Positions 13,043 through 32,000 of a stretch of DNA of 32,000 nucleotides are shown piece by piece. The notes beneath the pieces were generated by a model. The model saw only the letters and a list, made by a program, of their open reading frames with translations. It made no database searches and was not told the origin of the DNA. How positions within the stretch are numbered: the first letter of the stretch is position 1; every line of letters starts with the position of its first letter. The DNA is from Cupriavidus necator. Its GTDB lineage: Bacteria > Pseudomonadota > Gammaproteobacteria > Burkholderiales > Burkholderiaceae. The stretch is from the NCBI RefSeq assembly GCF_016127575.1, contig NZ_CP066018.1, positions 2,640,001 through 2,672,000 on the forward strand. The letters are read 5' to 3'. The translations under genes were made by a program, and so were the position numbers.

Positions 13043-13285
13043 TCAGTCTTCTGCATCCTTGCCAGCGGCCTTGCGCGGCAGCCGCCCTAGCGGCTGCTCC
13101 TGCGGCATCACATGGCGGTTGCCCGGCAATCCGCCCGGGTAGTCGACGATGCGCGCGGTGTCCTGGCGCCGCAGGCCATGCCATGCCTGGCCGCCGGCGG
13201 TACGCCCGCCGCCCAGGATGGCGGTCATGGCCTGCCGGTCGAGATCCATGCTGTCGGGCAAATCCTTGATGACGATCACTGCCAT
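13043..13285 (-). CDS. GG-leader peptide precursor, divergent basic cargo (pepA4, my label)
   Basis: MAVIVIKDLPDSMDLDRQAMTAILGG|GRTAGGQAWHGLRRQDTARIVDYPGGLPGNRHVMPQEQPLGRLPRKAAGKDAED. The leader is in the same 26-aa register as its five paralogs (D8 L9, L15 D16, M20, I23, G25 G26). The same ccGGAGAc..ATG initiation region is used. Confidence 0.55.
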   Translation of the reverse strand: MAVIVIKDLPDSMDLDRQAMTAILGGGRTAGGQAWHGLRRQDTARIVDYPGGLPGNRHVMPQEQPLGRLPRKAAGKDAED

Positions 13286-13389
13286 GGCTGTCTCCGGTCA
13301 AGCGGCGCCACGGCCATGCGGCCGCGGGACCGCTTCAGTATAGGCGAGGCGGTCCGCGGTATTGCCCGCGGGGCCGCCGCGCGGTGCGC

Positions 13390-13662
13390 TCAGACTGCGG
13401 CGAAATTGCCGGCCCATTGCGACGGGTTGACGTTGACGCGCACCGGGCCGAAGTCGGGGCCGACGATGCTGTTGTTGAGCGTGTTGACGTTGATGCTCTG
13501 CAGCTGCGCGATGTTCTGGTTGACGTTGACGGTGACGTTGGCCAGCGGGCCGACGCTGCCGACACCGCGGCTGAGCCACGAGTTGCCGCCGCGTACGGCG
13601 CACAGCGAGGCACGGTCGAGTTCTTTGCTCAGGGCGAGATCGCGGACGAGGATCGATGACAT
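13390..13662 (-). CDS. GG-leader peptide precursor, divergent Asn/Val-repeat cargo (pepA3)
   Basis: MSSILVRDLALSKELDRASLCAVRGG|NSWLSRGVGSVGPLANVTVNVNQNIAQLQSINVNTLNNSIVGPDFGPVRVNVNPSQWAGNFAAV. Good RBS (aaaggagcaccaccATG). Leader in the family register. Confidence 0.7.
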   Translation of the reverse strand: MSSILVRDLALSKELDRASLCAVRGGNSWLSRGVGSVGPLANVTVNVNQNIAQLQSINVNTLNNSIVGPDFGPVRVNVNPSQWAGNFAAV

Positions 13663-13696
13663 GGTGGTGCTCCTTTGAGTCGGGTGCCGGGGGCGG

Positions 13697-13728
13697 CTGG
13701 CGCGGAGATTGCAGCATCTGCGCGCCAG
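13697..13728 (-). other. Strong intercistronic hairpin between pepA2 and pepA3 (13-bp stem, one mismatch, 6-nt loop; no U tract)
   Basis: Plus strand: ctggcgcggagat-tgcagc-atctgcgcgccag. Confidence 0.4.
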
Positions 13729-13744
13729 CAGTGGCCAGGGCGTA

Positions 13745-14014
13745 TCAGCCGAAGATGTTGTTGGTGGCGTTCTGGTTGGTGTGCACGTCGGACTTGACGT
13801 GGTCCAGGAAGGCCGAGCCGTTGCCGTTCAGGTTGGTCACGGTCTGCATCTGCGCGATGCTTTGCGTGGCGTTGATGCTGTTGTCCAGCGACAGCCTGAT
13901 CGGCGTGTAGACGGCGGCGAAGGGCAGGTAGGCCAGGCCGCCGCGCACGGCGTGCATGCGCTTGCTGTCGAGGGTTTCGGCGGCGGGCAGGTCCTTGATG
14001 GTCAGCGTGGTCAT
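13745..14014 (-). CDS. GG-leader peptide precursor (pepA2)
   Basis: MTTLTIKDLPAAETLDSKRMHAVRGG|LAYLPFAAVYTPIRLSLDNSINATQSIAQMQTVTNLNGNGSAFLDHVKSDVHTNQNATNNIFG. 89 aa; hydrophobic residues at -4, -7, -12 relative to the GG. Confidence 0.8.
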   Translation of the reverse strand: MTTLTIKDLPAAETLDSKRMHAVRGGLAYLPFAAVYTPIRLSLDNSINATQSIAQMQTVTNLNGNGSAFLDHVKSDVHTNQNATNNIFG

Positions 14015-14068
14015 GATGGTCTCCGGTATCGGTCAGTGCGTGGGTGTGGGTGGCTGGGGCGCGTGGGC

Positions 14069-14338
14069 TCAGCCGTAGATGTTGTTGCTGGCGTTCTGGT
14101 TGGTATCCACATGCGAACGGACATGGTCCAGGAAGGCCGAGCCGTTGCCGTTCATGTTGGTGACGGTCTGCATCTGGGCGATTTCCTGCACGGCCTTGAT
14201 GCTGCTGTCGAACGACAGCTTCACCGGGCTGTAGACCGCGGCGAACGGCATGTAGGCCAGGCCGCCGCGTACGGCGTGCATGCCCTTGCGGTCCAGGGTT
14301 TCGGTGGAGGACAGGTCCTTGATGGTCAGCGTGGTCAT
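14069..14338 (-). CDS. GG-leader peptide precursor (pepA1)
   Basis: MTTLTIKDLSSTETLDRKGMHAVRGG|LAYMPFAAVYSPVKLSFDSSIKAVQEIAQMQTVTNMNGNGSAFLDHVRSHVDTNQNASNNIYG. First gene behind the sigma54 promoter. SD-like GGAG lies 7 nt before the ATG. Confidence 0.8.
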   Translation of the reverse strand: MTTLTIKDLSSTETLDRKGMHAVRGGLAYMPFAAVYSPVKLSFDSSIKAVQEIAQMQTVTNMNGNGSAFLDHVRSHVDTNQNASNNIYG

Positions 14339-14417
14339 GATGGTCTCCGGTAGAGGAAGGTACTGCCTTGGGTCTGGTTTCGAGCATCGGGTTGGTGTCG
14401 CGCTCGGGAGGTACTAA

Positions 14418-14433
14418 CGCAGGGACTGTGCCA
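14418..14433 (-). promoter_or_regulatory. Sigma54 (-24/-12) promoter of the pepA1-A4 operon
   Basis: The minus strand reads caTTGGCACAGTCCCTGCGTTag, i.e. TGGCAC-N5-CTGC with correct GG-N10-GC spacing. It is ~95 nt upstream of the pepA1 ATG and near-identical to the element at 19493-19508. Confidence 0.75.
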
Positions 14434-14464
14434 ATGCCGTTGCCGGTCCCGACCAGTCACGCGC

Positions 14465-14483: not shown

Positions 14484-14665
14484 CGATTTATTTTCGATGT
14501 CGGCTTGCGGGCACTGGCTGCGGGCGCTGCCGCATGCTACGGGTGACGGGCCGCGGCCAACAGGCGGCGTGCCGGTGTTGGCGCGGCCGCGACAGTGGCG
14601 CGCCAAAGGCGATGCGATTGGCAGGGGGCGCCCGCGCGCGGCGTTGCACGCCGGCTTCGCATGGT

Positions 14666-14746: not shown

Positions 14747-16798
14747 ATGTCGGGGCATCCGGTGGCCAGTCTCAAAGAACTGATCCGCAAGTTCCAGAAC
14801 GGCGGTCTCTCCGACGACGAGTTTGTTGCGTCGTTCGAAACGGCGCTGGCGCAGGATCCCACCACGCCCAGCCAGGCCGCGCGCGTGGTCATCGAGGAAA
14901 ACACGCGCTTCCCGTTCCCGCCCGCGGTCTATGCCGAAGTCATGCGGCGCATCGAGCGCCGCGGCGCCACGCAGTACGACGGCGCCACCGAGGCCACGCG
15001 CCTGGCCGGCACGCAGACGGGCTCGCTGTATGCGACCTCGCCCGAGCCGGGCACGCTGCCGCAGGCGGCGCATACCAAGGGCGTGGGCGATACGCTGAAC
15101 GGCCGCTTCGTGCTGGAAGAATGCCTGGGCGTGGGCGGCATGGGCACGGTCTACAAGGCGCTCGACCTGCGCAAGCTGGAAGCCTCGGACCGCAAGCCCT
15201 ATATCGCCATCAAGGTGCTGAACCTGCAGTTCAGCGGGCACCCCAAGTCGCTGATGGCGCTGCAGCGCGAGGCGCGCAAGGCGCAGACGCTGGCGCACCG
15301 GAATATCGTCACCGTCTATGACTTCGACCGCGACGGGCCGGTGGTCTTCCTGACCATGGAATACCTGTCAGGCTCTTCGCTCAACCATGTGCTCAAGGCC
15401 CCGGGCTTCACCGGCATGCCGATGGCGCGCGCCATGTCGATCATCAACGGCATGGGCAATGCGCTGGCATACGCGCACGAGCGCGGCTTCGTGCACTGCG
15501 ACTTCAAGCCCGCCAACGTCTTCCTGACCGCCAACGGCGAGGTCAAGGTGATCGACTTCGGCATCGCGCGCGGCTTCCTGCCGCCGGCCGACGAGTCCGA
15601 CCGGACCGTGTTCGATCCCGGCTCGCTGGGTGGCATGACGCCAGCCTACGCCAGCCCGGAGATGTTCGACCATTGCGAGCCCGACCCGCGCGACGACATC
15701 TTTGCGCTGGCCTGCGTGACCTATGAACTGCTGACCGGCAAGCATCCCTACCAGCGGCTCTCGGCCAACCAGGCGCGCGATGCCGGGCTCAAGCCGGCGC
15801 AGCCGCCGCAGTTGAGCCGCACGCAGTGGAAGACCCTGCGCGAGGCGCTGTCGCTCGACCGCGAGACACGCACGCCCACCGTCGCGCGCTTCCTGCATGG
15901 CATGAGCGCGGTGCCGGTGGTGTCCACGCGGCGCCCCTCGCCGCTGATGGCAGGCGGCGCGCTGGCCGTGCTGGCGGGCGTGTCGGCGATCGGCTACTAC
16001 GCCTGGCATTCGCAGCGCCAGGCCGAAGCACCGGCTGGCGATGCGCGCGTCGAGGCCCCGGCTACACCGGTGCCCGCAGCGCCGGTCATCCCGCCCGCAC
16101 CGGCTGCCCGCCCGGCGGTGCTGTCGATGGCCGACGTCACGAAGATGCTGGCCGCGGTGCCGTGCTCGCTGCTCACCGCCACCCAGCAGGCGCAGACGTT
16201 GCGTGTGCGTGGCTTCCTGGCCGAGAGCGTCGGCGCCGTGCGGCTGCGCGAGCAGCTCAGCGCGTTGCCGGGCGTCAAGGAGCTCAAGGGCGTGTCGATC
16301 GACACCCAGCCGCTGGCCGCCGACAAGTGCGACGTGGCCACCCTGATCGCGCCGTACTGGTCGGGCCACCGCGAAGGGGGCACGGCTTCGTCGCTGCGGC
16401 TGCGCGGCCAGGGCACGCAGCTGACCGAAGGGTCACCGCTGGTGCTGGATCTGCGCACGCCGGCGCGCGACTCCTATGTCTATGTCGATTACTTCGCGGC
16501 CGACGGCAAGGTGGCGCACATGGTGCCGAGCGCGCGCGTGCCCGCCCACCAGGCGCCGCCCAGCCATGGCGCCACGGTTGGCGACGGTGGCGACTGGATC
16601 ATCTCCGGGCCGTTCGGCACCGAGCTGGTGGTGTTGCTGACCACGCCCGCGCCGCTGTTCGATGGCCGGCGCGCCGAGGTCGAGCTGCACAAGGACTACC
16701 TGAAGGCACTGGAAAAGCCGCTGGCGCAGATGGCGCGCACCTATGGCCGGGACCGCATCAGCGCGGACCTGGTGCAGATCTCCACGCGCGCGCGCTGA
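14747..16798 (+). CDS. Transmembrane Hanks-type Ser/Thr protein kinase (non-RD) with a periplasmic DUF4384-like C-terminal domain
   Basis: Track ORF 14534..16798 trimmed to ATG 14747 (MSGHPVASLKELIRKF...); GTG 14723 is an alternative. GVGGMGTVYKA, IAIKVL, HCDFKPANVF (HRD->HCD), VIDFGIA, TPAYASPE. TM segment LMAGGALAVLAGVSAIGYYAW. C-terminal SYVYVDYFAADGKVAHMVPS...ELVVLLT resembles DUF4384. Confidence 0.9.
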   Translation: MSGHPVASLKELIRKFQNGGLSDDEFVASFETALAQDPTTPSQAARVVIEENTRFPFPPAVYAEVMRRIERRGATQYDGATEATRLAGTQTGSLYATSPEPGTLPQAAHTKGVGDTLNGRFVLEECLGVGGMGTVYKALDLRKLEASDRKPYIAIKVLNLQFSGHPKSLMALQREARKAQTLAHRNIVTVYDFDRDGPVVFLTMEYLSGSSLNHVLKAPGFTGMPMARAMSIINGMGNALAYAHERGFVHCDFKPANVFLTANGEVKVIDFGIARGFLPPADESDRTVFDPGSLGGMTPAYASPEMFDHCEPDPRDDIFALACVTYELLTGKHPYQRLSANQARDAGLKPAQPPQLSRTQWKTLREALSLDRETRTPTVARFLHGMSAVPVVSTRRPSPLMAGGALAVLAGVSAIGYYAWHSQRQAEAPAGDARVEAPATPVPAAPVIPPAPAARPAVLSMADVTKMLAAVPCSLLTATQQAQTLRVRGFLAESVGAVRLREQLSALPGVKELKGVSIDTQPLAADKCDVATLIAPYWSGHREGGTASSLRLRGQGTQLTEGSPLVLDLRTPARDSYVYVDYFAADGKVAHMVPSARVPAHQAPPSHGATVGDGGDWIISGPFGTELVVLLTTPAPLFDGRRAEVELHKDYLKALEKPLAQMARTYGRDRISADLVQISTRAR

Positions 16799-16843: not shown

Positions 16844-18067
16844 CTACTTCATGTCGCGCGCCACGCGAAAGCCGTTCTGCGACTGCCGCACGCTGGGGCT
16901 GTACTTGAAGCGCGTGGACGACACCATGTAGTTCGCCCCCTCGCGCCAGGAGCCGCCGCGGATCACGCGTGCGCCGCAGGCGTTCTCGTTCCATACGCGC
17001 CCGTCGGCGGGCGCGCCCTTGTATGAGCTGTGCCAGCAATCGGCCACCCATTCCCACACGCTGCCGTTGACGTCGTGCAGGCCGTACGGGTTGGCCGCGA
17101 ATGTCCCGACCGCGGCCGGCGCATCCTGGCTCCATGGGTCGCCGCAGTCCTTGCAGTTGGCATTGCCCTTGCGCATCTGGTCGCCCCACCAGTAGGCACT
17201 GGCGGTGCCGCCGCGCGCTGCGTATTCCCATTCGGCCTCGGTGGGCAGCCGGTAGGACTTGCCGGTGGTCTTGCTGAGCCAGGCCACGTACTGCTGCGCG
17301 TCGTCCCAGCTGACGTCGCGCACCGGCGCGTTCTTCGCGCTGTCGGCGACGGTGGGGACGCGCTGGCAGCCGCCGGCGTCGGCGCAGGCATTCCATTGCT
17401 CGACCGTGACCTCATAGCGGCCGATGGCAAACGGCTGGCCGATGGTGACGTGGTGCGGGGGCTTCTCGGCGGGATCGCTGGCACTGCTGCCCATGGTGAA
17501 GCTGCCCGCCGGCAGGGGGACCAGCACCGGGCAGGCCGGGCAATCGCGGATCTCGCCGGTGCGCAATGTGGCGCTGACCGCGCCGCCCGCCGCCGCGCCC
17601 GGGCGCAGCGATGCCGTTGCCGGTGGCGCAGCAGGTGGCGCAGCAGGTGACGCAGCGGGCGGCGATGCCGGACGCGCTGCCGCGGCCGGTGCCGGCGGCC
17701 GCGTGACCTGGCCCCCGGCAGAGGTGCCGGAGCGGGGCGGCGGTGCGGGCGCCTGGGCCTTGGGTGCGGAGGCGGACGCCGCCAGCCGCTCCAGGCGCGC
17801 CCTGGCCAGCACCGCGAAGCGTCCGTTGGGGTACTGCTTCAGGTAGGCCTCGTAGTCGCCGGCATAATTGCTGTTCTTGATCGATTCCCAGAAGCTCAGC
17901 TCGTACTGCTCCTCGGTGTTCTTGGGCATGATGCCGGCGAGCAGCAGCGGTTCCGTGGCCGCGGGGCCGGCGGCAGCGGCGGCCGCCTGCGCGGGCAGCG
18001 GCGCGGCGGCGAGCATGGCGGCCATGGCGGCCGTGCGTACGACTGGTAGATTGCGCCACATCTTCAC
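16844..18067 (-). CDS. Secreted FGE-sulfatase-fold (SUMF1/EgtB/PvdO family) protein with an N-terminal helical module and a Pro/Ala linker
   Basis: Signal peptide [58 protein letters not shown] module. FGE domain: [76 protein letters not shown]. Confidence 0.85.
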
Positions 18068-18355: not shown

Positions 18356-18781
18356 ATGTCCAGACGATTCCTGTTCCGCCTGCTGGCGGTTGCCGCCCTC
18401 GCCGCGGCCCCGTCGCTGTCGCTGTCGACGGCAGCCCCGCCCAATGCCGAGGCCTACATCATCTGGCCGCACGATGGCACGGTCATCAGCGGCGGCAAGT
18501 TCTGGGTGCGCATGGGCCTGCGCAATATGGGCGTGTGCCCCAAGGGCGTCGAGTCGCCGCGCTGCGGGCACCACCACCTGCTGGTCGACACCGAGCTGCC
18601 GCCGCTGGACAAGGAAATCCCTTCGGACAAGAACCACCTGCACTTCGGCGCGGGCGAGACCGACGCGCGCATTGAGTTGCCGCCCGGCAAGCACACGCTG
18701 CAATTGCTGATGGGCGATGCCAAGCACGTGCCGTTCGAGCCGCCGATCTATTCGAAGAAGATCACGATCACGGTGAAATAG
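18356..18781 (+). CDS. Secreted DUF4399-family protein (copy 1)
   Basis: Track ORF trimmed to ATG 18356 (RBS gggagg). Signal peptide MSRRFLFRLLAVAALAAAPSLSLSTA. GHHHLLVD, HLHFGAGETD, LPPGKHTLQLLMGD motifs. Confidence 0.75.
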   Translation: MSRRFLFRLLAVAALAAAPSLSLSTAAPPNAEAYIIWPHDGTVISGGKFWVRMGLRNMGVCPKGVESPRCGHHHLLVDTELPPLDKEIPSDKNHLHFGAGETDARIELPPGKHTLQLLMGDAKHVPFEPPIYSKKITITVK

Positions 18782-18840: not shown

Positions 18841-19269
18841 ATGTCCAGACTACTTGCCGCGGCTGTCTTTGCCGCCAGCCTGCTGCTGTCAGCGGTGGTG
18901 CAGGGTGGTTCGACGCCGGCGCCGCCCAACGCCTACCTGTATATCGGCTGGCCCAACGACGGGCAGACGATGCCCGCGGGCAAGCCATTCAAGGTCTGGT
19001 TCGGGTTGCGCAATATGGGGGTGGCGCCAAAGGACGTGAAGTATCCCAATACTGGGCACCATCACCTGCTTGTCGATGTGGACCTGCCGCCGATGGACAA
19101 GGAGATCCCCAATGACCGCAATCACCTGCATTTCGGGGCGGGGGAGACCGAGACCATGATCGAGCTGCCGCCCGGCAAGCATACGCTGCAGCTGCTGATG
19201 GGGGATGACAAGCACATTCCCACCAACCCGCCGGTTTATTCGAAGAGGATCACGATCTACGTGAAGTGA
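18841..19269 (+). CDS. Secreted DUF4399-family protein (copy 2, tandem paralog)
   Basis: Track ORF trimmed to ATG 18841 (RBS gggagag). Signal peptide MSRLLAAAVFAASLLLSAVVQG. Same GHHHLLVD / HLHFGAGETE / LPPGKHTLQLLMGD motifs; roughly two thirds identical to copy 1 by eye. Confidence 0.75.
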   Translation: MSRLLAAAVFAASLLLSAVVQGGSTPAPPNAYLYIGWPNDGQTMPAGKPFKVWFGLRNMGVAPKDVKYPNTGHHHLLVDVDLPPMDKEIPNDRNHLHFGAGETETMIELPPGKHTLQLLMGDDKHIPTNPPVYSKRITIYVK

Positions 19270-19289
19270 TCCGGACCTTGCGGTGACGG

Positions 19290-19314
19290 CGGCGCGCAAT
19301 GCGCCGTTTTTTTT
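19290..19314 (+). terminator. Rho-independent terminator after the DUF4399 pair
   Basis: cggcgc-gcaat-gcgccg followed by T8. Confidence 0.7.
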
Positions 19315-19443
19315 GTGCGCTGGCGCCGCAAGTGTCGGTCGCCATCCAACATCGACGGGCAAGCTGTTGGCTGCGCGCCGCCAGTGCGCGCTGACGCAGG
19401 CTCGCCGCGCCTCCGCCGCCGGCGCTGGCGGCAAGAAAAATTC

Positions 19444-19462: not shown

Positions 19463-19492
19463 CCGTGATCCGCGCGGCCATGGCGCCGGGGC

Positions 19493-19508
19493 TGGCACGC
19501 TCCCTGCG
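19493..19508 (+). promoter_or_regulatory. Sigma54 (-24/-12) promoter of pepB1-pepB2
   Basis: gcTGGCACGCTCCCTGCGAT: TGGCAC-N5-CTGC with GG-N10-GC spacing. The ~69-nt leader to ATG 19588 is highly similar to the pepA1 leader (cctcc.gagcgcgacaccaacccgatgctcga...ccttcctctacc.ggagaccatcATG). Confidence 0.75.
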
Positions 19509-19587
19509 ATTGTCCCTCCTGAGCGCGACACCAACCCGATGCTCGACCAACCACCAAGGTAACACCTTCCTCTACCCGGAGACCATC

Positions 19588-19857
19588 ATGACCACGCTGA
19601 CCATCACCGACCTGACCACCGTCGACACCCTGGACCGCAAGGGCATGCTCGCCGTTCGCGGCGGCCGCACCCTGCTCCCGTTCATGCCGGTGTACCACCC
19701 GCTCAACCTGTCGTTCGACCACAGCATCACCGCCGTGCAGGAAATCGCGCAGATGCAGACCGTCACCAATATGAATGGCAACGGCTCGGCCTTCCTGGAC
19801 CACGTGAAGTCCGACGTGCACACCAACCAGAACGCCACCAACAACATCTACGGCTGA
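19588..19857 (+). CDS. GG-leader peptide precursor (pepB1)
   Basis: Track ORF 19315..19857 trimmed to ATG 19588. MTTLTITDLTTVDTLDRKGMLAVRGG|RTLLPFMPVYHPLNLSFDHSITAVQEIAQMQTVTNMNGNGSAFLDHVKSDVHTNQNATNNIYG. Confidence 0.8.
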   Translation: MTTLTITDLTTVDTLDRKGMLAVRGGRTLLPFMPVYHPLNLSFDHSITAVQEIAQMQTVTNMNGNGSAFLDHVKSDVHTNQNATNNIYG

Positions 19858-19904
19858 GCCCCTGCGCGCCAGCTAGCTGCTTCTTACCGATACCGGAGAC
19901 CATC

Positions 19905-20174
19905 ATGACCACGCTGACCATCAAAGACCTGTCCGCCACCGAAACCCTCGACAGCAAGCGCATGCATGCCGTGCGCGGCGGCCTGTCGTACCTGCCCTTT
20001 GCCGCCGTGTATGCGCCGATCAAGCTCGCGTTCGACAGCAGCATCACCGCCAAGCAGGAAATCGCGCAGTTGCAGTCCGTGACCAACCTGAACGGCAATG
20101 GCTCGGCCTTCCTCGACCATGTCCGTTCGCATGTGGATACCAACCAGAACGCCAGCAACAATATCTATCGTTGA
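19905..20174 (+). CDS. GG-leader peptide precursor (pepB2)
   Basis: MTTLTIKDLSATETLDSKRMHAVRGG|LSYLPFAAVYAPIKLAFDSSITAKQEIAQLQSVTNLNGNGSAFLDHVRSHVDTNQNASNNIYR. Confidence 0.8.
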   Translation: MTTLTIKDLSATETLDSKRMHAVRGGLSYLPFAAVYAPIKLAFDSSITAKQEIAQLQSVTNLNGNGSAFLDHVRSHVDTNQNASNNIYR

Positions 20175-20194
20175 GAAGCTTGTTGAGATGGCGC

Positions 20195-24658: not shown

Positions 24659-26037
24659 AGGACGATGCCCGCCAGGGCGGCCTCAAGCCACTCTCCGAGG
24701 CGCTGGAAGACCACAGCGCCGAGGGCATCGGCCTGCTGAGTGCCGAGCCGTCGCGCCTGGGGCTGCTGACCATCGTCACGACTTTCACGCTGGTGTTGTG
24801 CGGGCTGGTGTGGTCCTTCGTCGGGCATGCCGATGTCATTGTCACGGCGCAGGGCACGCTGGCGCCGGAATCCGAGGTGCGCCGCTTCTATGCCCCGGTG
24901 GACGGCGAGCTGGCCGACCTCTACGTGGCCGAGGGGCAACCGGTGTCCAAGGACGACGTGCTGGCGCGCCTGAATGCGCGCGGCGCGATCGAGGCCGCGG
25001 CCAACGCGCTGGAAGCGCAGCTCAAGCTGGAAGACTCCGAGCGCGAATGGAAGCAGTTCCCCGACAAGAAGGCGCTGATGGAACGCCGCGCGGCGGCGCT
25101 CAAGCAGCAGATCGACGTGGCCACGCGCCAGCACGAGACCCGCATCGCCGAAGGCACCACGCGGCTTGCCGAACAGCAGCGCGCGCAGTTGCAGGAAGCG
25201 CGCAGCAACCTCGAGAACGCCCGGCGCGCGCGCGAATTCGCGCGCCAGGAGCAGGACCGATACGCGCGCCTGCTGGCGTTGCCGGGTGGCGGTGGCGTTT
25301 CGCAGTCGCAGGTGGATGCCAAGCGCGCCGCGGCGCAGGACGCGGAGAACAACCTGCGCGTGGCGCAGTCGCGGCTGACGGAGCTGGACGCACGCCTGGG
25401 CCGCGAGCTTACCCAGGCCAGTTCCCAGCTAGAAAGCAGCGGCCAGGACCTGGCCGGGCTGCGCGTGCAGTACGACGCGGCGCTGCGCGAGATCGCCAAC
25501 ACCGAGGACAAGCTGCGCCTGCAGGTGCAGACCGCGCGCCTGGTGGCGGACGCGGCAGCGCGCATCCGCTTCGAGAACATCGACAAGGACAACTTCCTGC
25601 TGATCCTGGCGCCGGTGTCGGGCGTGATCACCGATGTCACCTCCACCCAGCGCGGCGACAAGGTGCAGGCCAACACGCCGCTGGGCGGCATTGCCCCCAA
25701 GGATGCGCGCCCGGTGGTGAAGATCGTCATCGCCGAGCGTGACCGCGCTTTCCTGCGCGAGGGCCTGCCGGTCAAGCTCAAGTTCAGTGCCTTCCCGTAC
25801 CAGCGCTACGGGATCATCGAGGGCACGCTGGAATTCATCTCGCCCGCGACCAAGCCGGGCGGACCCGACAAGCAGCCGGTCTACGAGGGCCGCGTGCGGC
25901 TGGCGCGCGACTACTACGCGGTGGCCGACAACAAGTATCCGCTGCGTTACGGCATGACCGCCACGGCAGAGATCGTGGTGCGCGAACGCCGCCTGATCGA
26001 CCTGGGGCTTGACCCCTTCCGCGAGGTGGCCGGCTAG
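24655..26037 (+). CDS. HlyD-family membrane-fusion / periplasmic adaptor protein
   Basis: N-terminal TM (LGLLTIVTTFTLVLCGLVWSF), long coiled-coil (residues ~110-300), C-terminal beta-barrel motifs (ISPVSG-like APVSGVITDV, VKIVIAERD, LKFSAFPYQRYG, GMTATAEI). Confidence 0.85.
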   Translation: MKDDARQGGLKPLSEALEDHSAEGIGLLSAEPSRLGLLTIVTTFTLVLCGLVWSFVGHADVIVTAQGTLAPESEVRRFYAPVDGELADLYVAEGQPVSKDDVLARLNARGAIEAAANALEAQLKLEDSEREWKQFPDKKALMERRAAALKQQIDVATRQHETRIAEGTTRLAEQQRAQLQEARSNLENARRAREFARQEQDRYARLLALPGGGGVSQSQVDAKRAAAQDAENNLRVAQSRLTELDARLGRELTQASSQLESSGQDLAGLRVQYDAALREIANTEDKLRLQVQTARLVADAAARIRFENIDKDNFLLILAPVSGVITDVTSTQRGDKVQANTPLGGIAPKDARPVVKIVIAERDRAFLREGLPVKLKFSAFPYQRYGIIEGTLEFISPATKPGGPDKQPVYEGRVRLARDYYAVADNKYPLRYGMTATAEIVVRERRLIDLGLDPFREVAG

Positions 26038-26114: not shown

Positions 26115-26867
26115 ATGACTGGTATTGTGCGTATCGACGACGAGGTGCTTGGCTTCGAGGAGTTCGTGCGCTTGCTCAAGCTGACCGGACAGTTCGAAGG
26201 GCTGGTCGAGCAGATGGTGCGCGACAAGCTGACCGTGCACGCGGCAAAGCGGCAGGGCGTGGTGGTCACGCCGGAGGAGATCCAGGAACGCGCGGACCAG
26301 TTCCGCCGCGTGCAGGGCCTGCATCGCGCCGCAGACATGAATCACTACCTGGATGCGCTGAACATCAGCCTGGACGAATTCGAGGCCTTTGTCACCGACA
26401 GCCTGTACCAGGAGCGGATGATGGAGCAGGTGTGCAGCGAGGCCGCGGTGCAGGCGTACTTTGCGCTCAACTCGCCGCGCTTCGACAGCATCGAGGTCAG
26501 CCATATCGTGGTCGACAGCGAGGGCAAGGCCAAGGAGCTGATCTCGTACCTGCAGGATGATCCCGATGCCTTTGCCGAGATGGCGCGCGAGCATTCCATC
26601 GCCGACACGCGCGAGCGCGGAGGCGAGATCGGCAAGGTGCTGCGCGGCTCGCTCAAGACCGATATCGAGGCCAAGGTGTTCAATGCCGAGCCTGGCGACC
26701 TGCTGGGACCGTTCCCGTCGGCTGACCGTTCCTTCTTCGAAGTCTTCCTGGTGCGCGAAAAACACCCGGCCACCCTCGATAGCGAGGTGGCGGTGGAAGT
26801 GCGCCGCCTGCTGCGCGAAGACTGGCTGATGGCCAGGGCGCAGGAACATGTCATCGAAGCCCGCTAG
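26115..26867 (+). CDS. Cytoplasmic PpiC/parvulin-type peptidyl-prolyl cis-trans isomerase
   Basis: No signal peptide (MTGIVRIDDEVLGFEEF...). Rotamase domain SHIVVDSEGKAKELISYLQDDPDAFAEMAREHSIADTRERGGEIGKVLRGSL...EPGDLLGPFPSADRSFFEVFLV. The 3' end overlaps the ABC gene start by 20 nt. Confidence 0.8.
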   Translation: MTGIVRIDDEVLGFEEFVRLLKLTGQFEGLVEQMVRDKLTVHAAKRQGVVVTPEEIQERADQFRRVQGLHRAADMNHYLDALNISLDEFEAFVTDSLYQERMMEQVCSEAAVQAYFALNSPRFDSIEVSHIVVDSEGKAKELISYLQDDPDAFAEMAREHSIADTRERGGEIGKVLRGSLKTDIEAKVFNAEPGDLLGPFPSADRSFFEVFLVREKHPATLDSEVAVEVRRLLREDWLMARAQEHVIEAR

Positions 26868-29800
26868 CGCGAGCGGCGAGCCCGCCGCCCCGCCTGCCCC
26901 GGACCAGCCGGAGGCAGGATCGGCGCTGGCCGCCTTCCTCGCCACCGTCGAGATCCTGTCGGTGCTGGTGCCGGAGGAGCTGGCACGCCTGGCGGAAGCC
27001 GCGCAGGTGCTGACCTTCGGCTTTGGCGACACCGTCTGCAATGCCGGCGAAGCGGCGCCGGGCCTGTTTATCGTCAAGTCCGGCTCGGTGCGCGTGTTCA
27101 ACGAGGAGCACGGCAAGGAAATCAGCATGGGCGTGCGCAAGGCCGGCGAGGTCTTTGCCGATATCGCGCTGCTGCGCGACTACCGGCATGAGTCGTCGGT
27201 GCGCGCCTCGGGCAAGACCGAACTGCTGCTGATCCCGCGCAGCGTGGGCGAGCCGGTGGTGGCCGGCAACCCGGCGGCGCTTGCGTTTATCACCAGCTAT
27301 GTCGCGATCAGCTCGGCCGGCGGCTTTGTCGCGCGGCTGTTCGACCTGCGCGGCAAGCTCGACAAGCAGGAGCTGGAAGACGCCGTGCGCAGCGTCGGCG
27401 TCAAGCGCGTGGCGGCCGGCAAGGAGATCCTGAAGCAGGACGGCCGCGAAGACCGGCGCCTGTACGTGGTGCGCCAGGGCACGGTGCGCATCGTGCGCAG
27501 CGAAGAGGGCAGCGAGTACCCGCTGGCGACGCTGGGGCAGGGCGACATCTTCGGCGAGCGCGCCTGCGTGATGCGGCAGGAGCAGCTGGCCTCGGCCATT
27601 GCCGATACCGACGTGCGCCTGCTGGTGATTCCCGAGAAGACGGTGCAGCTGATTTTGGAGCGCAACCCGCGCCTGCGCGAGGTGCTGGAAGAGCGCATCC
27701 GCGTGCTGGACCGCGAGTTGCATCGGCAGAAGAAGCTGGCCGAACGGCGCAAGCGCCCGGTGCTGCTGGACCTGCATTCAAAGCCCGAGCTCGGCGAAAA
27801 GCTGATCCGCCGCTTCGCGCTGGTGGAGCAGGCCGAGGAGATGGATTGCGGCGCGGCCTGCCTGGCGATGATCTGCCGGCACTACGGCATCCCGATGACG
27901 CTGGGCAAGCTGCGCGAACTGGCCAATGTGACCACCCAGGGCGCCACGCTCGACAGCCTGGCGCGCGCCGGCGAAGCGCTCGGCTTCACCACGCGCGGGG
28001 TGCAGTGCACGCGGGATTCGCTGATGGGGTTCGAGCTTCCCTTCATCGTGCACTGGGAGGGGTACCACTACGTGGTGGTGTACGGGATCTCGTCGCGCTG
28101 GGTGTGGGTGGCCGACCCGGCCATCGGCTTCCGCAAGATGAGCGCCGAGGAGTTCGAGCGCGGCTGGAGCGGCACCTGCCTGCTGTTCACGCCGGGCGAG
28201 AGCATGACCCAGCTGTCGGTGTCGCGCTCGCCGTGGCTGCGCTTTATCGGCTACCTGGCGCCGTACAAGAGGATCCTGGCGCACCTGTTTCTGGCCACCT
28301 TCGTGATCCAGATGCTGGGGGTGGTCCCGCCGCTGATTATCCAGAACATCCTGGACGGCGTGGTGGTGCACCAGAACGTGGGGCTGCTGAACCTGCTGAT
28401 CGCGGGGCTGATCATCTCCAACGTGTTCTCGCAGCTGATGTCTACGATTCGCGCGTATCTGGCCAACTTCATGGTGCGCAACATGGATTTCGCCATGATG
28501 TCGCACTTCTTCAAGCACACGCTGTCGCTGCCGCTGTCGTTCTTTGCCAAGCGCAAGACCGGGGACATCTTCGCGCGCTTCCAGGAGAACCAGACCATCC
28601 GCGCCTTCCTGACCGAGTCGACCGTGACCACGGCGCTGAACCTGCTGATGGTGTTTATCTACTTCACCATCATGTTTCTCTACAACGTCAAGCTGACGCT
28701 GCTGCTGATCGCCTTCGTGATCCCGATCGCGGCGCTGACGGTGGTGGTGACGCCCAAGGTCAAGACCTATGCGCGCGAGGTGTTCGCGGCATCGACCGAT
28801 GCCAAGGCCTACCTGATGGAAACGCTGGGCGGCGCCGAGACCGTCAAGGGCATGGGCATCGAGCGCCCGGTGCGGCTGCGCTGGGAGCGCAAGTACGCCA
28901 AGGCGCTGGACGCGCAATACCGGGCACAGGCCTTCCACATCCTGGTGGGGCTGGTGAGCCAGCTGCTCAACGCCGCCACCACCATCGCGGTGCTGTGGGT
29001 GGGCGCGACGCTGGTGCTGGAGCGCGAGCTCACCATCGGCCAGCTGATCGCCTTCAATGCCTTCATGGGCAGCGTGCTGGCGCCGCTGATGGGGCTGGTG
29101 GCGTTGTGGGGCCAGCTCAACGATGCCGGCGTGGCGATGGAGCGCCTGGGCGACGTGCTCGACCTGGAGCCCGAGCAGAAGCCGCAGGACGTGCTGTCGC
29201 GCGTGATGCTGCCCGACCTGCAGGGCGAGATCGTGATGAAGGACCTGTACTTCCGCTACGGCGGCGAAGACACGCCCTATGTGCTGGAGAACATCAGCTT
29301 CGCCATCCGCCCTGGCGAGATGGTGGCCATCGTCGGGCGCAGCGGCTCAGGCAAGACTACGCTGGCCAAGCTGCTGGTGGGCTTCTACAAGCCTACCGAG
29401 GGCTCGATGACAGTGGACGGCTATGACCTGAACGTGATCGACGCGGCGTTCTACCGCGCGCAGGTGGGCTACGTGATGCAGTCCAACCTGCTGTTCTCGG
29501 GGACCATTGCCGAGAACATCGCCTGCGGCGACGACAGCCCGGACCGGCGCCGCATCGAGGAGGTGGCGCGCATGGCCGATGCCCACGCCTTTATCAGCAA
29601 GCTGCCGCTGGGCTACGAGCAGGTGGTGGGCGAGCGTGGTATCGGGCTTTCCGGCGGGCAGATCCAGCGCCTGTGCATTGCCCGCGCGCTGTACCACGAC
29701 CCGCGCCTGCTGGTGTTCGACGAGGCCACCTCGGCGCTCGACACGCAGTCAGAGAGCAACATCCTGGCGAATATGCAGGAGATCCTGCGCGGGCGCACCG

Positions 29801-29958
29801 CGGTCATCATCGCGCACCGGCTCAGCACCATCATGCAGGCCGATAAGATCCTGGTGCTGTATGAAGGCGCCATCGTCGAGCAGGGCCGGCATGAGGAGCT
29901 GATCGAGCGCAAGGGCATGTATTTCCAACTGGTGCAGAAGCAACTGAGCGCAGCATGA
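26848..29958 (+). CDS. Peptidase-containing ABC transporter (PCAT): 2 x cNMP-binding-like domains + C39 Cys-peptidase + 6-TM ABC domain + NBD
   Basis: 1036 aa. CNB-like 1 is about aa 30-140 and CNB-like 2 about aa 160-285. C39 domain: EEMDC(334)GAACLAMICRHYG, HWEGYHYVVVYG, WVADP (Cys/His/Asp present). NBD: GRSGSGKTT, LSGGQIQRLCIARAL, LLVFDEATSALD, IIAHRLS. Confidence 0.92.
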   Translation: MSSKPASASGEPAAPPAPDQPEAGSALAAFLATVEILSVLVPEELARLAEAAQVLTFGFGDTVCNAGEAAPGLFIVKSGSVRVFNEEHGKEISMGVRKAGEVFADIALLRDYRHESSVRASGKTELLLIPRSVGEPVVAGNPAALAFITSYVAISSAGGFVARLFDLRGKLDKQELEDAVRSVGVKRVAAGKEILKQDGREDRRLYVVRQGTVRIVRSEEGSEYPLATLGQGDIFGERACVMRQEQLASAIADTDVRLLVIPEKTVQLILERNPRLREVLEERIRVLDRELHRQKKLAERRKRPVLLDLHSKPELGEKLIRRFALVEQAEEMDCGAACLAMICRHYGIPMTLGKLRELANVTTQGATLDSLARAGEALGFTTRGVQCTRDSLMGFELPFIVHWEGYHYVVVYGISSRWVWVADPAIGFRKMSAEEFERGWSGTCLLFTPGESMTQLSVSRSPWLRFIGYLAPYKRILAHLFLATFVIQMLGVVPPLIIQNILDGVVVHQNVGLLNLLIAGLIISNVFSQLMSTIRAYLANFMVRNMDFAMMSHFFKHTLSLPLSFFAKRKTGDIFARFQENQTIRAFLTESTVTTALNLLMVFIYFTIMFLYNVKLTLLLIAFVIPIAALTVVVTPKVKTYAREVFAASTDAKAYLMETLGGAETVKGMGIERPVRLRWERKYAKALDAQYRAQAFHILVGLVSQLLNAATTIAVLWVGATLVLERELTIGQLIAFNAFMGSVLAPLMGLVALWGQLNDAGVAMERLGDVLDLEPEQKPQDVLSRVMLPDLQGEIVMKDLYFRYGGEDTPYVLENISFAIRPGEMVAIVGRSGSGKTTLAKLLVGFYKPTEGSMTVDGYDLNVIDAAFYRAQVGYVMQSNLLFSGTIAENIACGDDSPDRRRIEEVARMADAHAFISKLPLGYEQVVGERGIGLSGGQIQRLCIARALYHDPRLLVFDEATSALDTQSESNILANMQEILRGRTAVIIAHRLSTIMQADKILVLYEGAIVEQGRHEELIERKGMYFQLVQKQLSAA

Positions 29959-31271
29959 AGCTATACAACCAGGGAGCCACCCCCGCCTCGGTCACGTCCC
30001 CGGTGTCGTTCGCCGGGCTGATCGAGAAGATCGAGATCCTGCGTTCCACGCTGCGCTGGTCGTCGCGGCTTGACCGGCCGGAGATCGAGAAGCTGCTCAA
30101 GCAGGTCACCACGCTGCGCGACGAGGTGATGGGGCTGTCGCACAAGGAGCGCTTCGTGCAGGCCGCGTCGGCCGAGGCGGCCCCGCCGCAGGAAGAAGTC
30201 GAGCGCATGCCGCGCGCGCGCCGGCAGGCACTGGTTGAGCGCAGCTTTATTTTCGAAGGGACCTTCGGCGACAACCCCAAGTTGCTGGAGGCACTGGAGA
30301 TTGCCGAGAAGGCGGCGCCGACCGACCTGCCGGTGCTGATCGATGGAGAGAGCGGCACCGGCAAGGAGCTGATGGCCAAGGTGATCCATGCCAATGGCTC
30401 ACGCACCGACAAGCCGTTTATCTCGGTCAACTGCGGCGCCATCCCCGACAGCCTGCTTGAATCCGAGCTGTTCGGCCACAAGAAGGGCGCCTTCACCGGC
30501 GCCAGCAATGACCGCCGCGGCAAGTTCGAGAGCGCGCATACCGGCACCATCTTCCTGGACGAGATCGGCGAGCTGCCGCTGACCGGGCAGGTCAAGCTGC
30601 TGCGCGTGCTGGAGGCGCACGAGATCCAGCGCGTGGGCTCGGACGAGGCGATCTCGGTCGATACGCGCATCGTCGCGGCGACCAACAAGGACCTGCGCCG
30701 CATGAGCCAGGCCGGCACCTTCCGCGAAGACCTGTTCTATCGCCTGAGCGTGATCCACGTCAGCCTGCCGTCGCTGCGCGAGCGGCGCGACGAGATCCCG
30801 CTGCTGGTGTCGTACTTCAGTGACGAGGCCGCCGGCATGCTCAAGCGCCGGCCACTCAAGCTGACGCCGCGGCTGCGCGACTTCCTGCTGCACTACGACT
30901 ACCCGGGCAATATCCGCGAACTGCGCAACCTGATGTACCGGCTGAGCTGCCTGGCCGGCGACACCGCCGACCTGGCCCAACTGCCGCAGGACATCCGCCC
31001 CAGGCCCGCCGCACTGGCGGTGGTGGGCAATGGCCCCGCCGCTGCCGACATTGCCATGGCGACGTCCCTCAGCGAAGCCAAGCGCGCCGCCAGCGACGAG
31101 GCCGAGCGGGCCTTCCTCGAACGGGGCTTGCAGGAGGTCGGCGGCACCGTCGCCGAACTGGCGCGGCGCTTCGACATGAACCGCTCGCACCTGCAGATGC
31201 TGCTGAAGAAGCACGGCATCCACTCGAAGGATTTCCGCGCCAACCGGCAGGCCGAAGGCGGCAAGGGGTAG
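29955..31271 (+). CDS. Sigma54-dependent enhancer-binding protein (bEBP) with a non-receiver ~115-aa N-terminal region and a Fis-type HTH
   Basis: GESGTGKELMAKVIH (Walker A), ESELFGHKKGAFTGA (GAFTGA loop), FLDEIGELP, RVGS, RIVAATN, FREDLFYRL, C-terminal GGTVAELARRFDMNRSHLQMLLKKHGI. The ATG overlaps the ABC stop (ATGA, 29955-29958). Confidence 0.9.
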   Translation: MKLYNQGATPASVTSPVSFAGLIEKIEILRSTLRWSSRLDRPEIEKLLKQVTTLRDEVMGLSHKERFVQAASAEAAPPQEEVERMPRARRQALVERSFIFEGTFGDNPKLLEALEIAEKAAPTDLPVLIDGESGTGKELMAKVIHANGSRTDKPFISVNCGAIPDSLLESELFGHKKGAFTGASNDRRGKFESAHTGTIFLDEIGELPLTGQVKLLRVLEAHEIQRVGSDEAISVDTRIVAATNKDLRRMSQAGTFREDLFYRLSVIHVSLPSLRERRDEIPLLVSYFSDEAAGMLKRRPLKLTPRLRDFLLHYDYPGNIRELRNLMYRLSCLAGDTADLAQLPQDIRPRPAALAVVGNGPAAADIAMATSLSEAKRAASDEAERAFLERGLQEVGGTVAELARRFDMNRSHLQMLLKKHGIHSKDFRANRQAEGGKG

Positions 31272-31299
31272 GGCGGCGAGGCCGCCGGCGGTCGTGCCT

Positions 31300-32000
31300 T
31301 CAGGCGTCCAGCTCGGGATTGACCAGGGTCTTGTCAGAGCCGTACGGGTCCGCCGCACGCAGCACCACCACCGACACGTTGTCGCGGCCGCCGGCATCGA
31401 GCGCCATCTGCACCAGCGTCGGCGCGGCCTGCGCAACGTCCTGCTGCGCCAGCACCGCCGCGATGTCGTCATCGTCGACCTCGTTGCTCAGGCCATCGCT
31501 GCACAGCAGGTACACGTCGCCATCGGCGACCTCGGTCAGCAGCTGCTCCGGCGCCAGCGTCGGGGCCGCGCCGACGGCGCGTGTGATGGTGTTCTGCGCG
31601 GGATGGTGGCGCGCTTCTTCCGGGGTGATCAGCCCGCGCGCCAGCAGGCGCTCGACCTGGTTGTGGTCGCGCGTGAGGCGCGCGAACTGGCCGCCGCGCA
31701 GCCGGTACAGGCGGCTGTCGCCGGCCCACACGCAGGCGCAACGGCGATCGCCCGCCAGCATTACCACCACCGTGCTGCCGATGCAGCGCACGCCCAGGCG
31801 CGCCGCTTCATCGACCAGCGCCAGGTTCACGCCCTGCAGCGCCGCGCGCGTGGCGTCGACCCGGTCTTCCAGCCGGGGCTGCGGCGGCAGCGTGGCCAGC
31901 GCCTGGACCACCGCCTGGCTGGCGAAGTCTCCCACGGCATGGCCGCCCATGCCGTCGGCCACTGCCCACAGGTCCTGGCTGGGCAGATCCAGGCAAGCGT
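31300..32000 (-). CDS. PP2C-family Ser/Thr protein phosphatase (5' end beyond the right edge of the window)
   Basis: The track ORF starts at M 31962, but the frame stays open to 32000 (..ACLDLPSQDLWAVADGMGGHAVGDFAS). The ADGMGGH motif is internal in PP2C enzymes. LLCSDGLSNEV and GGRDNVSVVVL are the C-terminal PP2C motifs. Confidence 0.85.
   Translation of the reverse strand, partial: ACLDLPSQDLWAVADGMGGHAVGDFASQAVVQALATLPPQPRLEDRVDATRAALQGVNLALVDEAARLGVRCIGSTVVVMLAGDRRCACVWAGDSRLYRLRGGQFARLTRDHNQVERLLARGLITPEEARHHPAQNTITRAVGAAPTLAPEQLLTEVADGDVYLLCSDGLSNEVDDDDIAAVLAQQDVAQAAPTLVQMALDAGGRDNVSVVVLRAADPYGSDKTLVNPELDA

Follow-up and report, generated by a model that had tools for sequence, protein, structure and literature searches.

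A conserved Cupriavidus necator locus of GG-leader peptide genes with a predicted peptide exporter and a kinase/FHA/PP2C module

Gene content of the locus

We analyzed 32,000 nt of the Cupriavidus necator genome (NZ_CP066018.1, positions 2,640,001 to 2,672,000; hereafter, the window). From position 13043 onward, this stretch encodes small peptides with double-glycine (GG) leaders together with a tripartite exporter, a sigma-54 enhancer-binding protein (EBP), and a transmembrane (TM) Ser/Thr kinase, an FHA-domain protein and a PP2C phosphatase (Table 1). An exact protein match placed the window on C. necator H16 chromosome 1 (AM260479.1, ~2.88–2.905 Mb, reversed), and the flank to the right of position 32000 was read from the same chromosome (labelled L002). 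Relatives of the locus, a cluster of soil betaproteobacteria, were detected in at least 408 species genomes in a scan of one genome per species, and the best 80 loci were examined.

The exporter comprises a peptidase-containing ABC transporter (PCAT), a HlyD-family membrane-fusion protein (MFP) and a NodT-family outer-membrane protein (OMP). The C39 peptidase domain of the PCAT was recognized by PF03412 (E = 1.5e-39), and its Gln, Cys, His and Asp residues aligned with those of PCAT1 (4ry2; DCGAACL / H / DP). Similarity extended over the full length to HlyB (7sgr, E = 1e-138), PCAT1 (E = 4e-137) and ComA (E = 3e-111). The protein scored below all three curated NCBIfam cutoffs (487 versus 524 bits for TIGR01193, 614 versus 726 for TIGR01846, and 564 versus 853 for TIGR03796), and thus belongs to a distinct subfamily and is no equivalog of the named ones. 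Its likely substrates are encoded nearby, by six GG-leader genes in the window and one just outside it.

Domains for cyclic nucleoside monophosphates (cNMPs) had been assigned to this transporter in an initial annotation of the window, made from the letters alone. The cyclic nucleotide-binding (CNB) fold was indeed detected (PF00027, E = 2e-34), but the canonical cNMP-binding Arg is missing from both domains. Alignment to PKG gave, in place of the canonical phosphate-binding cassette GE...R[ST]A, AD...HES for domain 1 and GE...QLA for domain 2; domain 1 therefore also lacks the GE. The only characterized CNB-PCAT, HetC of Nostoc PCC 7120, likewise unites an N-terminal CNB-type domain, a C39 peptidase and an ABC ATPase in one protein. 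Its CNB domain is essential, binds neither cAMP nor 2-oxoglutarate, and bound ppGpp/GTP in vitro; the paper describing it found no MFP gene near hetC. The PCAT of the window differs in having two CNB domains and MFP and OMP genes alongside, and it comes from another phylum, with other substrates and regulators.

A cytoplasmic SurA-like parvulin, 77–98% identical in relatives, is encoded directly before the PCAT. A SurA/parvulin-related cytoplasmic protein beside a PCAT and GG-type precursor genes has a counterpart in MirC (TIGR04500), recently shown to act as a SurA-like partner in a PCAT-containing graspetide cluster. Unlike members of TIGR04500, the parvulin described here scored under the family cutoff (84.5 versus 180 bits), its match began at profile position 90, and the N-terminal domain resembling a recognition element of peptides made on the ribosome and modified after translation (RiPPs) is missing. 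As the cluster contains no ATP-grasp ligase gene, a chaperone or holdase role in export is the simplest inference for this protein. An ATGA overlap (29955–29958) joins the PCAT gene to that of the EBP. The N-terminal ~100 residues of the EBP are nearly invariant across genera (AGLIE.IEILRSTLRW...LSHKERFVQAA, with S34/T35 of RSTLRW invariant) and gave only noise in Pfam at E <= 1, with no family; the EBP has no receiver and no FHA domain.

The TM Hanks-type kinase, the FHA protein and the PP2C phosphatase are encoded together, and this arrangement is syntenic in relatives. The kinase probably starts at MSGHPV. Its catalytic loop (HCD) marks it as a non-RD kinase, and its periplasmic C-terminus showed a weak match to DUF4384 (25.6 bits versus a cutoff of 27). 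The neighboring FGE-sulfatase-fold gene was syntenic in ~50 loci and adjoins the kinase gene also in Noviherbaspirillum massiliense (L089), Aromatoleum diolicum (L090) and a metagenome contig (L092). Read from the sequence, its product has no Cys pair after GGSW and is therefore not predicted to be a formylglycine-generating enzyme.

In related loci, the gene of the 2xFHA protein always lies between the OMP and HlyD genes, and it is joined to the latter by an ATGA overlap (24655–24658). FHA1 carries the canonical phosphothreonine-binding residues according to an AlphaFold model and a 24-sequence alignment. The FHA domains are followed by a disordered linker of ~90 residues (251–339) with invariant Thr residues in the same alignment (T255, T257, and T285/T286 in KTTFV), then by one TM segment and a ~460-aa all-alpha periplasmic domain (AlphaFold pLDDT ~90). 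A Foldseek search with the model matched the FHA domains alone (FhaA, GarA/OdhI, DgcB and Rv1747 FHA-2); for the all-alpha domain, Foldseek found no solved relative and Pfam gave only noise at E <= 1. Rv1747 of Mycobacterium tuberculosis is an ABC exporter with two FHA domains that is regulated by the kinase PknF. Both systems combine two FHA domains and a Thr-bearing disordered linker with an ABC exporter and a Ser/Thr kinase, but in Rv1747 the FHA domains are fused to the transporter, no PCAT and no peptide substrates are involved, and the envelope is of the monoderm type.

In total, the gene inventory proposed by the initial annotation from position 13043 on held up well: every named gene was present with the ascribed domains in open reading frames (ORFs) and Pfam/NCBIfam profile searches. 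Profiles and the PCAT1 alignment bore out a complete tripartite exporter, with a C39-ABC protein with intact catalytic residues, HlyD and a NodT lipoprotein. Profiles and the gene overlap did the same for the TM kinase, the double-FHA membrane protein coupled to HlyD and the PP2C, and the accessory genes were found as described (a signal-less parvulin, a secreted FGE-fold protein and two DUF4399 proteins). The island had also been expected to run on past position 32000, where the rest of the PP2C gene, a seventh peptide gene and an LRAT-fold gene are located.

Table 1. Features of the locus and its borders. Positions refer to the window unless marked L002 (H16 chromosome 1). UAS, upstream activating sequence; HTH, helix-turn-helix.
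Feature	Position	Strand	Remarks
DEAD-box helicase	10306-12408	-	~200-aa C-terminal tail of GG/RG/GN repeats (FGNR.GG..); left border of island
pep4	13043-13285	-	GG-leader peptide, type D; basic, Pro/Gly-rich, divergent 54-aa core
pep3	13390-13662	-	GG-leader peptide, divergent; 64-aa N-rich core, NVTVNVNQNIAQLQSINVNTLNN...
pep2	13745-14014	-	Type A GG-leader peptide; 26-aa leader and 63-aa core; in inverted duplication with 19883-20179
pep1	14069-14338	-	Type A GG-leader peptide; first gene of four-gene operon
Sigma-54 promoter, pep1-pep4 operon	14419-14433	-	-24 TGGCAC, -12 CTGC; 95 nt upstream of ATG
Candidate UAS palindrome	14557-14581	.	CCAACA-N13-TGTTGG; pep1/kinase divergent intergenic region, ~125-150 nt upstream of -24
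Transmembrane Ser/Thr kinase	14747-16798	+	Pkinase E = 8e-39; TM segment; ORF opens at 14534
FGE-sulfatase-fold protein, secreted	16844-18067	-	PF03781 E = 2.5e-58; signal peptide; PvdO-like 183 bits, under cutoff
DUF4399 protein a	18356-18781	+	PF14347 E = 6e-38; signal peptide; HHHL motif; syntenic in relatives
DUF4399 protein b	18841-19269	+	PF14347 E = 2e-35; tandem paralogue of a (direct repeat D2)
Intrinsic terminator after DUF4399b	19288-19308	+	
Second candidate UAS palindrome	19346-19370	.	CCAACA-N13-TGTTGG; upstream of pep5-pep6 promoter
Sigma-54 promoter, pep5-pep6 operon	19493-19507	+	95 nt upstream of ATG
pep5	19588-19857	+	Type A GG-leader peptide
pep6	19905-20174	+	Type A GG-leader peptide
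Strong intrinsic terminator	20195-20222	+	pep6/export genes boundary; 12-bp stem, 11 GC pairs
NodT-family outer-membrane lipoprotein channel	20359-21822	+	TIGR01845 312 bits versus cutoff 210; PF02321; LAGC lipobox
2xFHA membrane protein	22049-24658	+	FHA1 residues 31-132 (GR/SRxH/NGT motifs); FHA2 141-249
HlyD-family membrane-fusion protein	24655-26037	+	ATGA overlap with FHA gene
Parvulin (SurA-like, cytoplasmic)	26115-26867	+	250 aa; SurA-N-like region and Rotamase; no signal peptide
PCAT	26848-29958	+	Two non-canonical CNB domains, C39 peptidase, 6-TM region, ABC ATPase
Sigma-54 EBP	29955-31271	+	PF00158 E = 2e-70; AAA+ with GAFTGA; C-terminal HTH region
PP2C phosphatase	31300-32000, start ~32076 outside window	-	258 aa; convergent with EBP gene
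Seventh GG-leader peptide	L002 12197-12490 = window ~32151-32444	-	Type B, 97 aa, MATLAINDLASCRELAPAAMARVRGAGG...
Sigma-54 promoter of seventh peptide	L002 ~12542-12556		Textbook element TGGCACGCGCCTTGCT
Palindrome of type B promoter	L002 12779-12805		
LRAT-family gene	L002 12955-13440 = window ~32909-33394	+	Papain-like acyltransferase fold; PF04970, 80 bits

Peptide family, promoters and conservation

The six small peptide genes of the window, four on the minus strand and two on the plus strand, encode a common 26-aa leader ending in GG. ORFs and alignment agree in this with the six paralogs proposed at the outset. The cores are 63 aa (four peptides), 64 aa (one) and 54 aa (pep4) long. In the family as a whole, precursors are ~90 aa with the leader consensus M.TL.IKDLS...ELD.K.M.AVRGG, in which positions -4, -7 and -12 are hydrophobic, in keeping with recognition by a PCAT. 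This GG leader is kept from Cupriavidus to Noviherbaspirillum and uncultured Burkholderiales. The leader of pep4, MAVIVIKDLPDSMDLDRQAMTAILGG, is matched by a peptide of a distant locus (L083, 16635–16829, minus strand; uncultured Burkholderiales). Recurrence of this variant (MA[VT]IVIKDL..S.DLDRQAM.AI.GG) in an uncultured Burkholderiales genome makes it a real subtype and not a decayed copy.

The cores of the peptides in related loci sort into four types, A to D. Type A peptides are encoded upstream of NodT in one or two copies and have a variable core; H16 possesses four extra peptide genes (pep1–pep4). Type B is single-copy, lies upstream of PP2C and has a strongly conserved core, WV[FY]GWI[QR]P...NFYA[DN]QM.NQFQ..D[IV]RN. 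Type C was found in Noviherbaspirillum and L083, and the basic type D is represented by pep4. An inverted duplication (13740–14444 versus 19482–20179, 83–87% identity) encompasses the promoter, the 5' leader and two peptide genes. It brackets the kinase/FGE/DUF4399 block, and most relatives carry the NodT-side copy only in the stretch examined.

An exhaustive profile search yielded 282 clusters of the peptide family at 50% identity, with nearly all members 85–100 aa long and sharing the C-terminal motif SQ.IGQ[ST]QNV.N.NGNNAAF..GI.S.V.PTQ.A.NNI. The members that we looked up were unnamed or annotated as "hypothetical". Searches against Pfam (E <= 10) and NCBIfam returned nothing meaningful, and the peptide profile gave only chance-level matches among PDB sequences (E ~0.1). 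The name "STAS domain-containing protein", given by NCBI to some 89-aa peptides, looks like a misannotation, as no STAS match was found in Pfam or NCBIfam. The cores are Cys-free and near-neutral in charge, with N+Q making up 17–25% (9% in pep4) and S+T 12–17% (lower in pep4 and pep7). AlphaFold predicted the type A precursor to be disordered as a monomer (mean pLDDT 49, no secondary structure), which speaks neither for nor against amyloid.

The seventh peptide, beyond the window end, is of type B. The PP2C gene follows it at a distance of 74 nt on the same strand, and the two appear to be co-transcribed. In Caballeronia terrestris, the pair of type B peptide gene and PP2C gene has moved as a unit. 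The position of PP2C behind a peptide gene with its own sigma-54 promoter, which lay out of view of the initial annotation, suggests feedback. Divergent from the type B promoter is an LRAT-family gene with an NCEHF motif and a C-terminal hydrophobic tail, whose position is kept in 59 loci including H16 copies (Cupriavidus, Paraburkholderia, Pandoraea, Burkholderia and Caballeronia). The initial statement that RiPP maturases are absent thus holds inside the window, whereas this conserved LRAT-fold gene lies just outside it. Its product could be an enzyme that serves the system in peptide modification, immunity or the envelope.

Sigma-54 promoters were sought with the exact pattern TGGCAY-N5-YTGC and by comparative analysis, which replaced a loose TGGCAC-N5-TTGC pattern with two mismatches that was uninformative (55 matches versus 52 expected). 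The exact pattern occurs three times in the window (0.6 expected), and two of the sites precede the pep1–pep4 and pep5–pep6 operons. The third, TGGCATTGCCCTTGC (TGGCAT-N5-CTTGC; 17158–17172, plus strand), is antisense in the FGE gene on conserved K-G-N-A codons, and a similar match stands at the equivalent codon position in locus L027; it is probably a chance match and no promoter. Across ~70 loci, every peptide cluster with enough upstream sequence has a promoter 48–115 nt upstream of the first ATG, and downstream tandem peptide genes lack the element. The spacer varies while GG and GC are kept, the pattern that a sigma-54 promoter under selection leaves. Promoters in front of the peptide genes, as described initially, are therefore conserved, with the correction that there is one per operon and not one per gene; the -12 element, called textbook, reads CTGC and not TTGC.

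Alignment of the regions upstream of the peptide promoters revealed a palindrome, CCAACA-N13/15-TGTTGG. With at most one mismatch, it was present in 91 of the 112 distinct promoter regions, where it precedes the -24 element by a median of 148 nt; the background frequency is 0.024 per 300 nt. Exactly two sites occur in the 32-kb window (0.02 expected), both listed in Table 1, and none elsewhere in it. The palindrome is common to type A and type B promoters, and we infer from this distribution that it is a candidate enhancer of the cluster's EBP. Promoter conservation and the common upstream palindrome together strongly support sigma-54 control of the peptide genes, as far as can be read from sequence. 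Given the strong terminators after DUF4399b and pep6, expression of the peptide genes probably exceeds that of the machinery genes by far. Both peptide operons also have a conserved stem-loop in their 5' leaders (14339–14418 and 19508–19587), near the transcript 5' end, CGAGC-N16-GCTCG in Cupriavidus and TCGAGCA-GACAAGT-TGCTCGA in Paraburkholderia, with one compensatory change in L082 (TCGAACA/TGTTCGA) and no Rfam match. This hairpin may be an mRNA-stabilizing or regulatory element.

The presence of each gene in the related loci was counted by tblastn of the window proteins, with loci having enough flank as denominators. The parvulin/CNB-PCAT/EBP core was found in 72 of 72 loci, NodT, 2xFHA and HlyD upstream of it in 57–58 of 67, and PP2C downstream in 61 of 72. 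FGE and DUF4399 genes lie upstream, and the kinase is at the edge of the flank. Identity to Paraburkholderia proteins was 75–80% for parvulin, PCAT and EBP, ~65% for NodT, ~57% for PP2C and ~48% for the FHA protein. Synteny of the cluster extends over no fewer than six genera of Burkholderiales and Rhodocyclales. Despite rearrangements, the complete set with kinase, FGE-like and DUF4399 genes recurs in Cupriavidus, Paraburkholderia, Pandoraea, Caballeronia, Noviherbaspirillum and Aromatoleum. For example, A. diolicum (Rhodocyclales) and the 177-kb metagenome contig L092 have the whole set with rearranged kinase/FGE/DUF4399 orientations, and C. terrestris (L093) has it in a rearranged order. 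In N. massiliense, kinase, C14-FGE and two DUF4399 genes, and then FHA-GAF-HD, OMP, 2xFHA and HlyD genes, lie ~20 kb off on the same contig. Because the components stay together despite changed order and orientation, chance juxtaposition can be rejected; the co-occurrence of FHA, EBP, kinase and PP2C genes with the PCAT across genera was the check proposed by the initial annotation.

The invariant core of the system is hence the peptide, the parvulin, the CNB-PCAT and the EBP, and the kinase/FGE/DUF4399/NodT/FHA/HlyD block is a second module co-travelling with it. Directly upstream of the OMP gene, three relatives carry an extra FHA-GAF-HD (HD_5) gene that H16 lacks (L089, 6463–8499; L090, 3090–5015; L092, 6546–8474). 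This gene hints at a nucleotide second messenger in the circuit, which is of note in view of the CNB domains on the PCAT.

Proposed mechanism and role of the peptides

With a little less than even confidence, we read the locus from its gene content as a dedicated, conserved betaproteobacterial system that makes, processes and secretes small, polar and apparently unmodified peptides. In this scheme, the cluster's EBP would bind the CCAACA-N13/15-TGTTGG sites and drive all peptide operons. The cytoplasmic parvulin would hold aggregation-prone precursors ready for export, and the PCAT would cut after GG and, with HlyD and NodT, release the 54–71-aa cores outside the cell. The kinase, a TagR-like FGE-fold protein, the 2xFHA protein and the PP2C could form a type VI-like threonine-phosphorylation switch that gates exporter assembly or activity, and possibly the EBP, on an envelope or extracellular cue. 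The 2xFHA protein, whose gene stands between those of OMP and MFP and is coupled to the second, is proposed to be an exporter scaffold, which would recognize phosphothreonine set by the kinase and removed by the PP2C. As the PP2C would be expressed from the type B peptide transcript, induction would be self-limiting.

The switch is modelled on the threonine-phosphorylation pathway of type VI secretion (PpkA/TagR/Fha1/PppA), where a TM Ser/Thr kinase, an FHA protein and a PP2C are likewise encoded with a secretion machine. TagR lies beside PpkA in Pseudomonas, and TagR1 is annotated as an FGE-sulfatase-domain protein; domain annotation and gene position liken the FGE-fold periplasmic partner beside our kinase to it. 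VasH is the type VI sigma-54 activator driving hcp genes, and the cluster-encoded EBP would similarly activate sigma-54 promoters in front of secreted substrates. However, the secretion machine here is a type I-like PCAT/HlyD/NodT exporter, and neither the window nor the 10-kb flanks of related loci contained type VI core genes (TssA–M, Hcp, VgrG). The 2xFHA protein departs from the type VI pattern as well: it is integral to the membrane, has a large periplasmic domain, and its gene stands between those of OMP and MFP. The kinase ectodomain, with its weak DUF4384 match, likewise differs. The initial annotation knew of no kinase/FHA/PP2C gating in PCAT or type I-like export, and our literature search found no paper on such control and no description of this cluster. 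The parts are of known kinds; on that search, their combination, the peptide family and the candidate enhancer motif are not.

The same phosphorylation genes could serve a peptide pheromone, essentially the model of the initial annotation and a reading that we hold to be rather improbable. The periplasmic kinase domain, helped by the FGE-like and DUF4399 proteins, would detect one of the secreted peptides (type B being the most plausible), phosphorylation would activate the EBP, and autoinduction would follow, with the PP2C as reset. Such a circuit would be a Gram-negative analog of the Gram-positive three-component bacteriocin and competence systems, in which inducer peptide genes are co-transcribed with their kinase and regulator genes. 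The pairing of the type B gene with a signalling gene, PP2C, behind a sigma-54 promoter parallels those operons. Kinase and FHA protein both have large periplasmic domains, and one candidate enhancer motif at all peptide promoters fits a single autoregulated regulon. On the other hand, a pheromone of 63–71 aa would be long, type B cores have been conserved from genus to genus without a split into pherotypes, and seven precursor genes exceed signalling needs. The EBP, having neither receiver nor FHA domain, shows no visible link to the kinase, and in Noviherbaspirillum the kinase module stands apart from the EBP core. That the kinase or FHA periplasmic domains act as sensors of secreted peptide is pure conjecture.

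For the peptides of the proposed secretion system, we tentatively suggest, by analogy, self-assembling extracellular or surface peptides, with the variable, multi-copy type A as the major and the conserved, single-copy type B as the minor subunit. Our best guess is a structural role that would liken them to the matrix proteins EbfG of Synechococcus, which also have GG leaders, and not to toxins. EbfG1–4 of Synechococcus elongatus are small GG-motif proteins secreted by the PCAT PteB; they are biofilm matrix components and form amyloid. Small GG-leader peptides and a PCAT are shared with that system; no sequence relation was detected, and the Synechococcus system has no sigma-54, kinase, FHA and PP2C module. 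Besides this precedent, a structural role is suggested by the core composition, the pairing of a variable with a conserved type, the dedicated chaperone, the lack of an immunity gene, the conservation of locus and gene order across genera, and the terminator that splits peptide from machinery genes.

Some observations weigh against this interpretation. No curli or Fap homology was found in the Pfam and PDB profile searches, and the exporter is of another kind as well. The AlphaFold model of the type A precursor contains no beta-solenoid, which, together with the missing family match, leaves core composition and analogy to carry the structural role. The LRAT-fold neighbor could point to modification of the peptides. 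The operon from NodT to EBP, which the strong terminator after pep6 cuts off from the peptide genes, has no assigned promoter. In most Noviherbaspirillum loci, only parvulin, PCAT and EBP genes are adjacent, so that the phospho/adaptor module is not beside the PCAT core, and one genome (L087) has no peptide gene near the core. As a separate observation on L087, low-GC, foreign-looking DNA follows the EBP gene, where peptide genes would be expected. Finally, a GG leader, PCAT, MFP and OMP combined with tandem paralogous 6–7-kDa peptides is the canonical layout of class II microcins too.

A class II microcin-type weapon would consist of unmodified antibacterial toxins released through a CvaAB/TolC-like machine, with the regulators only timing production; we consider it unlikely, while giving it some weight. 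Class II microcins such as colicin V (CvaA-CvaB-TolC) and the PCAT systems (PCAT1, ComA) share with the locus GG-leader precursors below 10 kDa, a C39-ABC protein with conserved Gln, Cys, His and Asp, a HlyD-type adaptor and a TolC-type outer-membrane channel. Cores of 54–71 aa, tandem paralogs and type A cores varying between species would also suit toxins, and class II microcins were recently reported to be abundant and sequence-diverse (PMC12219008). Microcin immunity genes are described as immediately adjacent (PMC12219008), but no TM ORF adjoins any peptide gene in the window or the H16 flank, so that the initial impression of a missing immunity-like gene was right. Immunity would have to come from an unrecognized factor, such as the LRAT-fold membrane protein or one of the DUF4399 proteins. 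Furthermore, the locus order is conserved across genera and not patchy, and Cupriavidus and Paraburkholderia have closely similar type B cores, which would be unusual for a toxin without matching immunity. The island peptides match no known bacteriocin family. Two N-terminal CNB-like domains on the exporter and an own NodT gene set the island apart from microcin and PCAT systems, as does the addition of a parvulin, a sigma-54 EBP, a 2xFHA membrane protein, a kinase and a PP2C; the literature search found no paper with parvulin, EBP or kinase/FHA/PP2C genes in microcin loci.

The separation of the two blocks in Noviherbaspirillum would also be expected if they were independent neighbors, with the kinase/FGE/DUF4399 block, and perhaps PP2C, forming a separate envelope-stress module. 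FGE-fold, caspase and CHAT domains accompany kinases in many other contexts, and C14-FGE and CHAT genes are present in L089 and L090. We nevertheless judge independence to be very improbable: kinase, FGE and DUF4399 genes stay with NodT-FHA-HlyD even when apart from the PCAT core (L089), translational coupling links the FHA gene with HlyD, PP2C goes with a peptide gene and the sigma-54 promoter of that gene, and in L090, L092 and L093 all components have kept together through rearrangements.

A joint reading, in which a type VI-style pathway switches the PCAT exporter via the 2xFHA scaffold, the peptides self-assemble and the EBP senses export status, seems to us distinctly doubtful as a whole. 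Within it, type B would be a nucleator or signal and type A the subunits of an extracellular structure or a means of cell–cell recognition, with transcription under substrate feedback. If the proposed switch is real, it would be the first known attachment of kinase/FHA/PP2C control, established in type VI secretion, to a type I/PCAT peptide exporter, and would point to the phospho-switch as a portable module for envelope-spanning machines. The analysis defines an uncharacterized peptide family and a regulon of sigma-54 promoter and candidate palindromic enhancer, and the species concerned include genetically tractable, industrially used strains (C. necator H16 and P. xenovorans LB400). Peptides acting as matrix or recognition factors would bear on the biofilm and rhizosphere behavior of Burkholderiales; toxins would constitute a new microcin class with unusual regulation.

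Flanks of the locus

The GC content is even across the window (63–73%), with no break at the island. A mobile element or horizontally acquired island was rejected on the grounds that there is no integrase, no compositional break, and housekeeping genes at the flank. These left-flank genes are RNase T, PmbA, thyA, TerC, egtD/egtB and the DEAD-box helicase ending at 12408. An EgtD-like histidine methyltransferase gene (PF10017; 7726–8823, plus strand), followed by one for an EgtB-like FGE-sulfatase-domain protein (8968–10224, plus strand), resembles ergothioneine biosynthesis genes; the pair has no relation to the island and supplies the second FGE-fold gene in the window. An Rfam scan of the window gave no matches, and PADLOC returned generic domain matches only (kinase, CNB, AAA+) and no defense system. 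Toxin–antitoxin genes were seen at or inside the island borders: HigB-type genes downstream in H16 (L002 14512–15245, minus strand), and, in the metagenome relative L092 (19313–19883), an inserted pair with HicB that separates EBP from PP2C.

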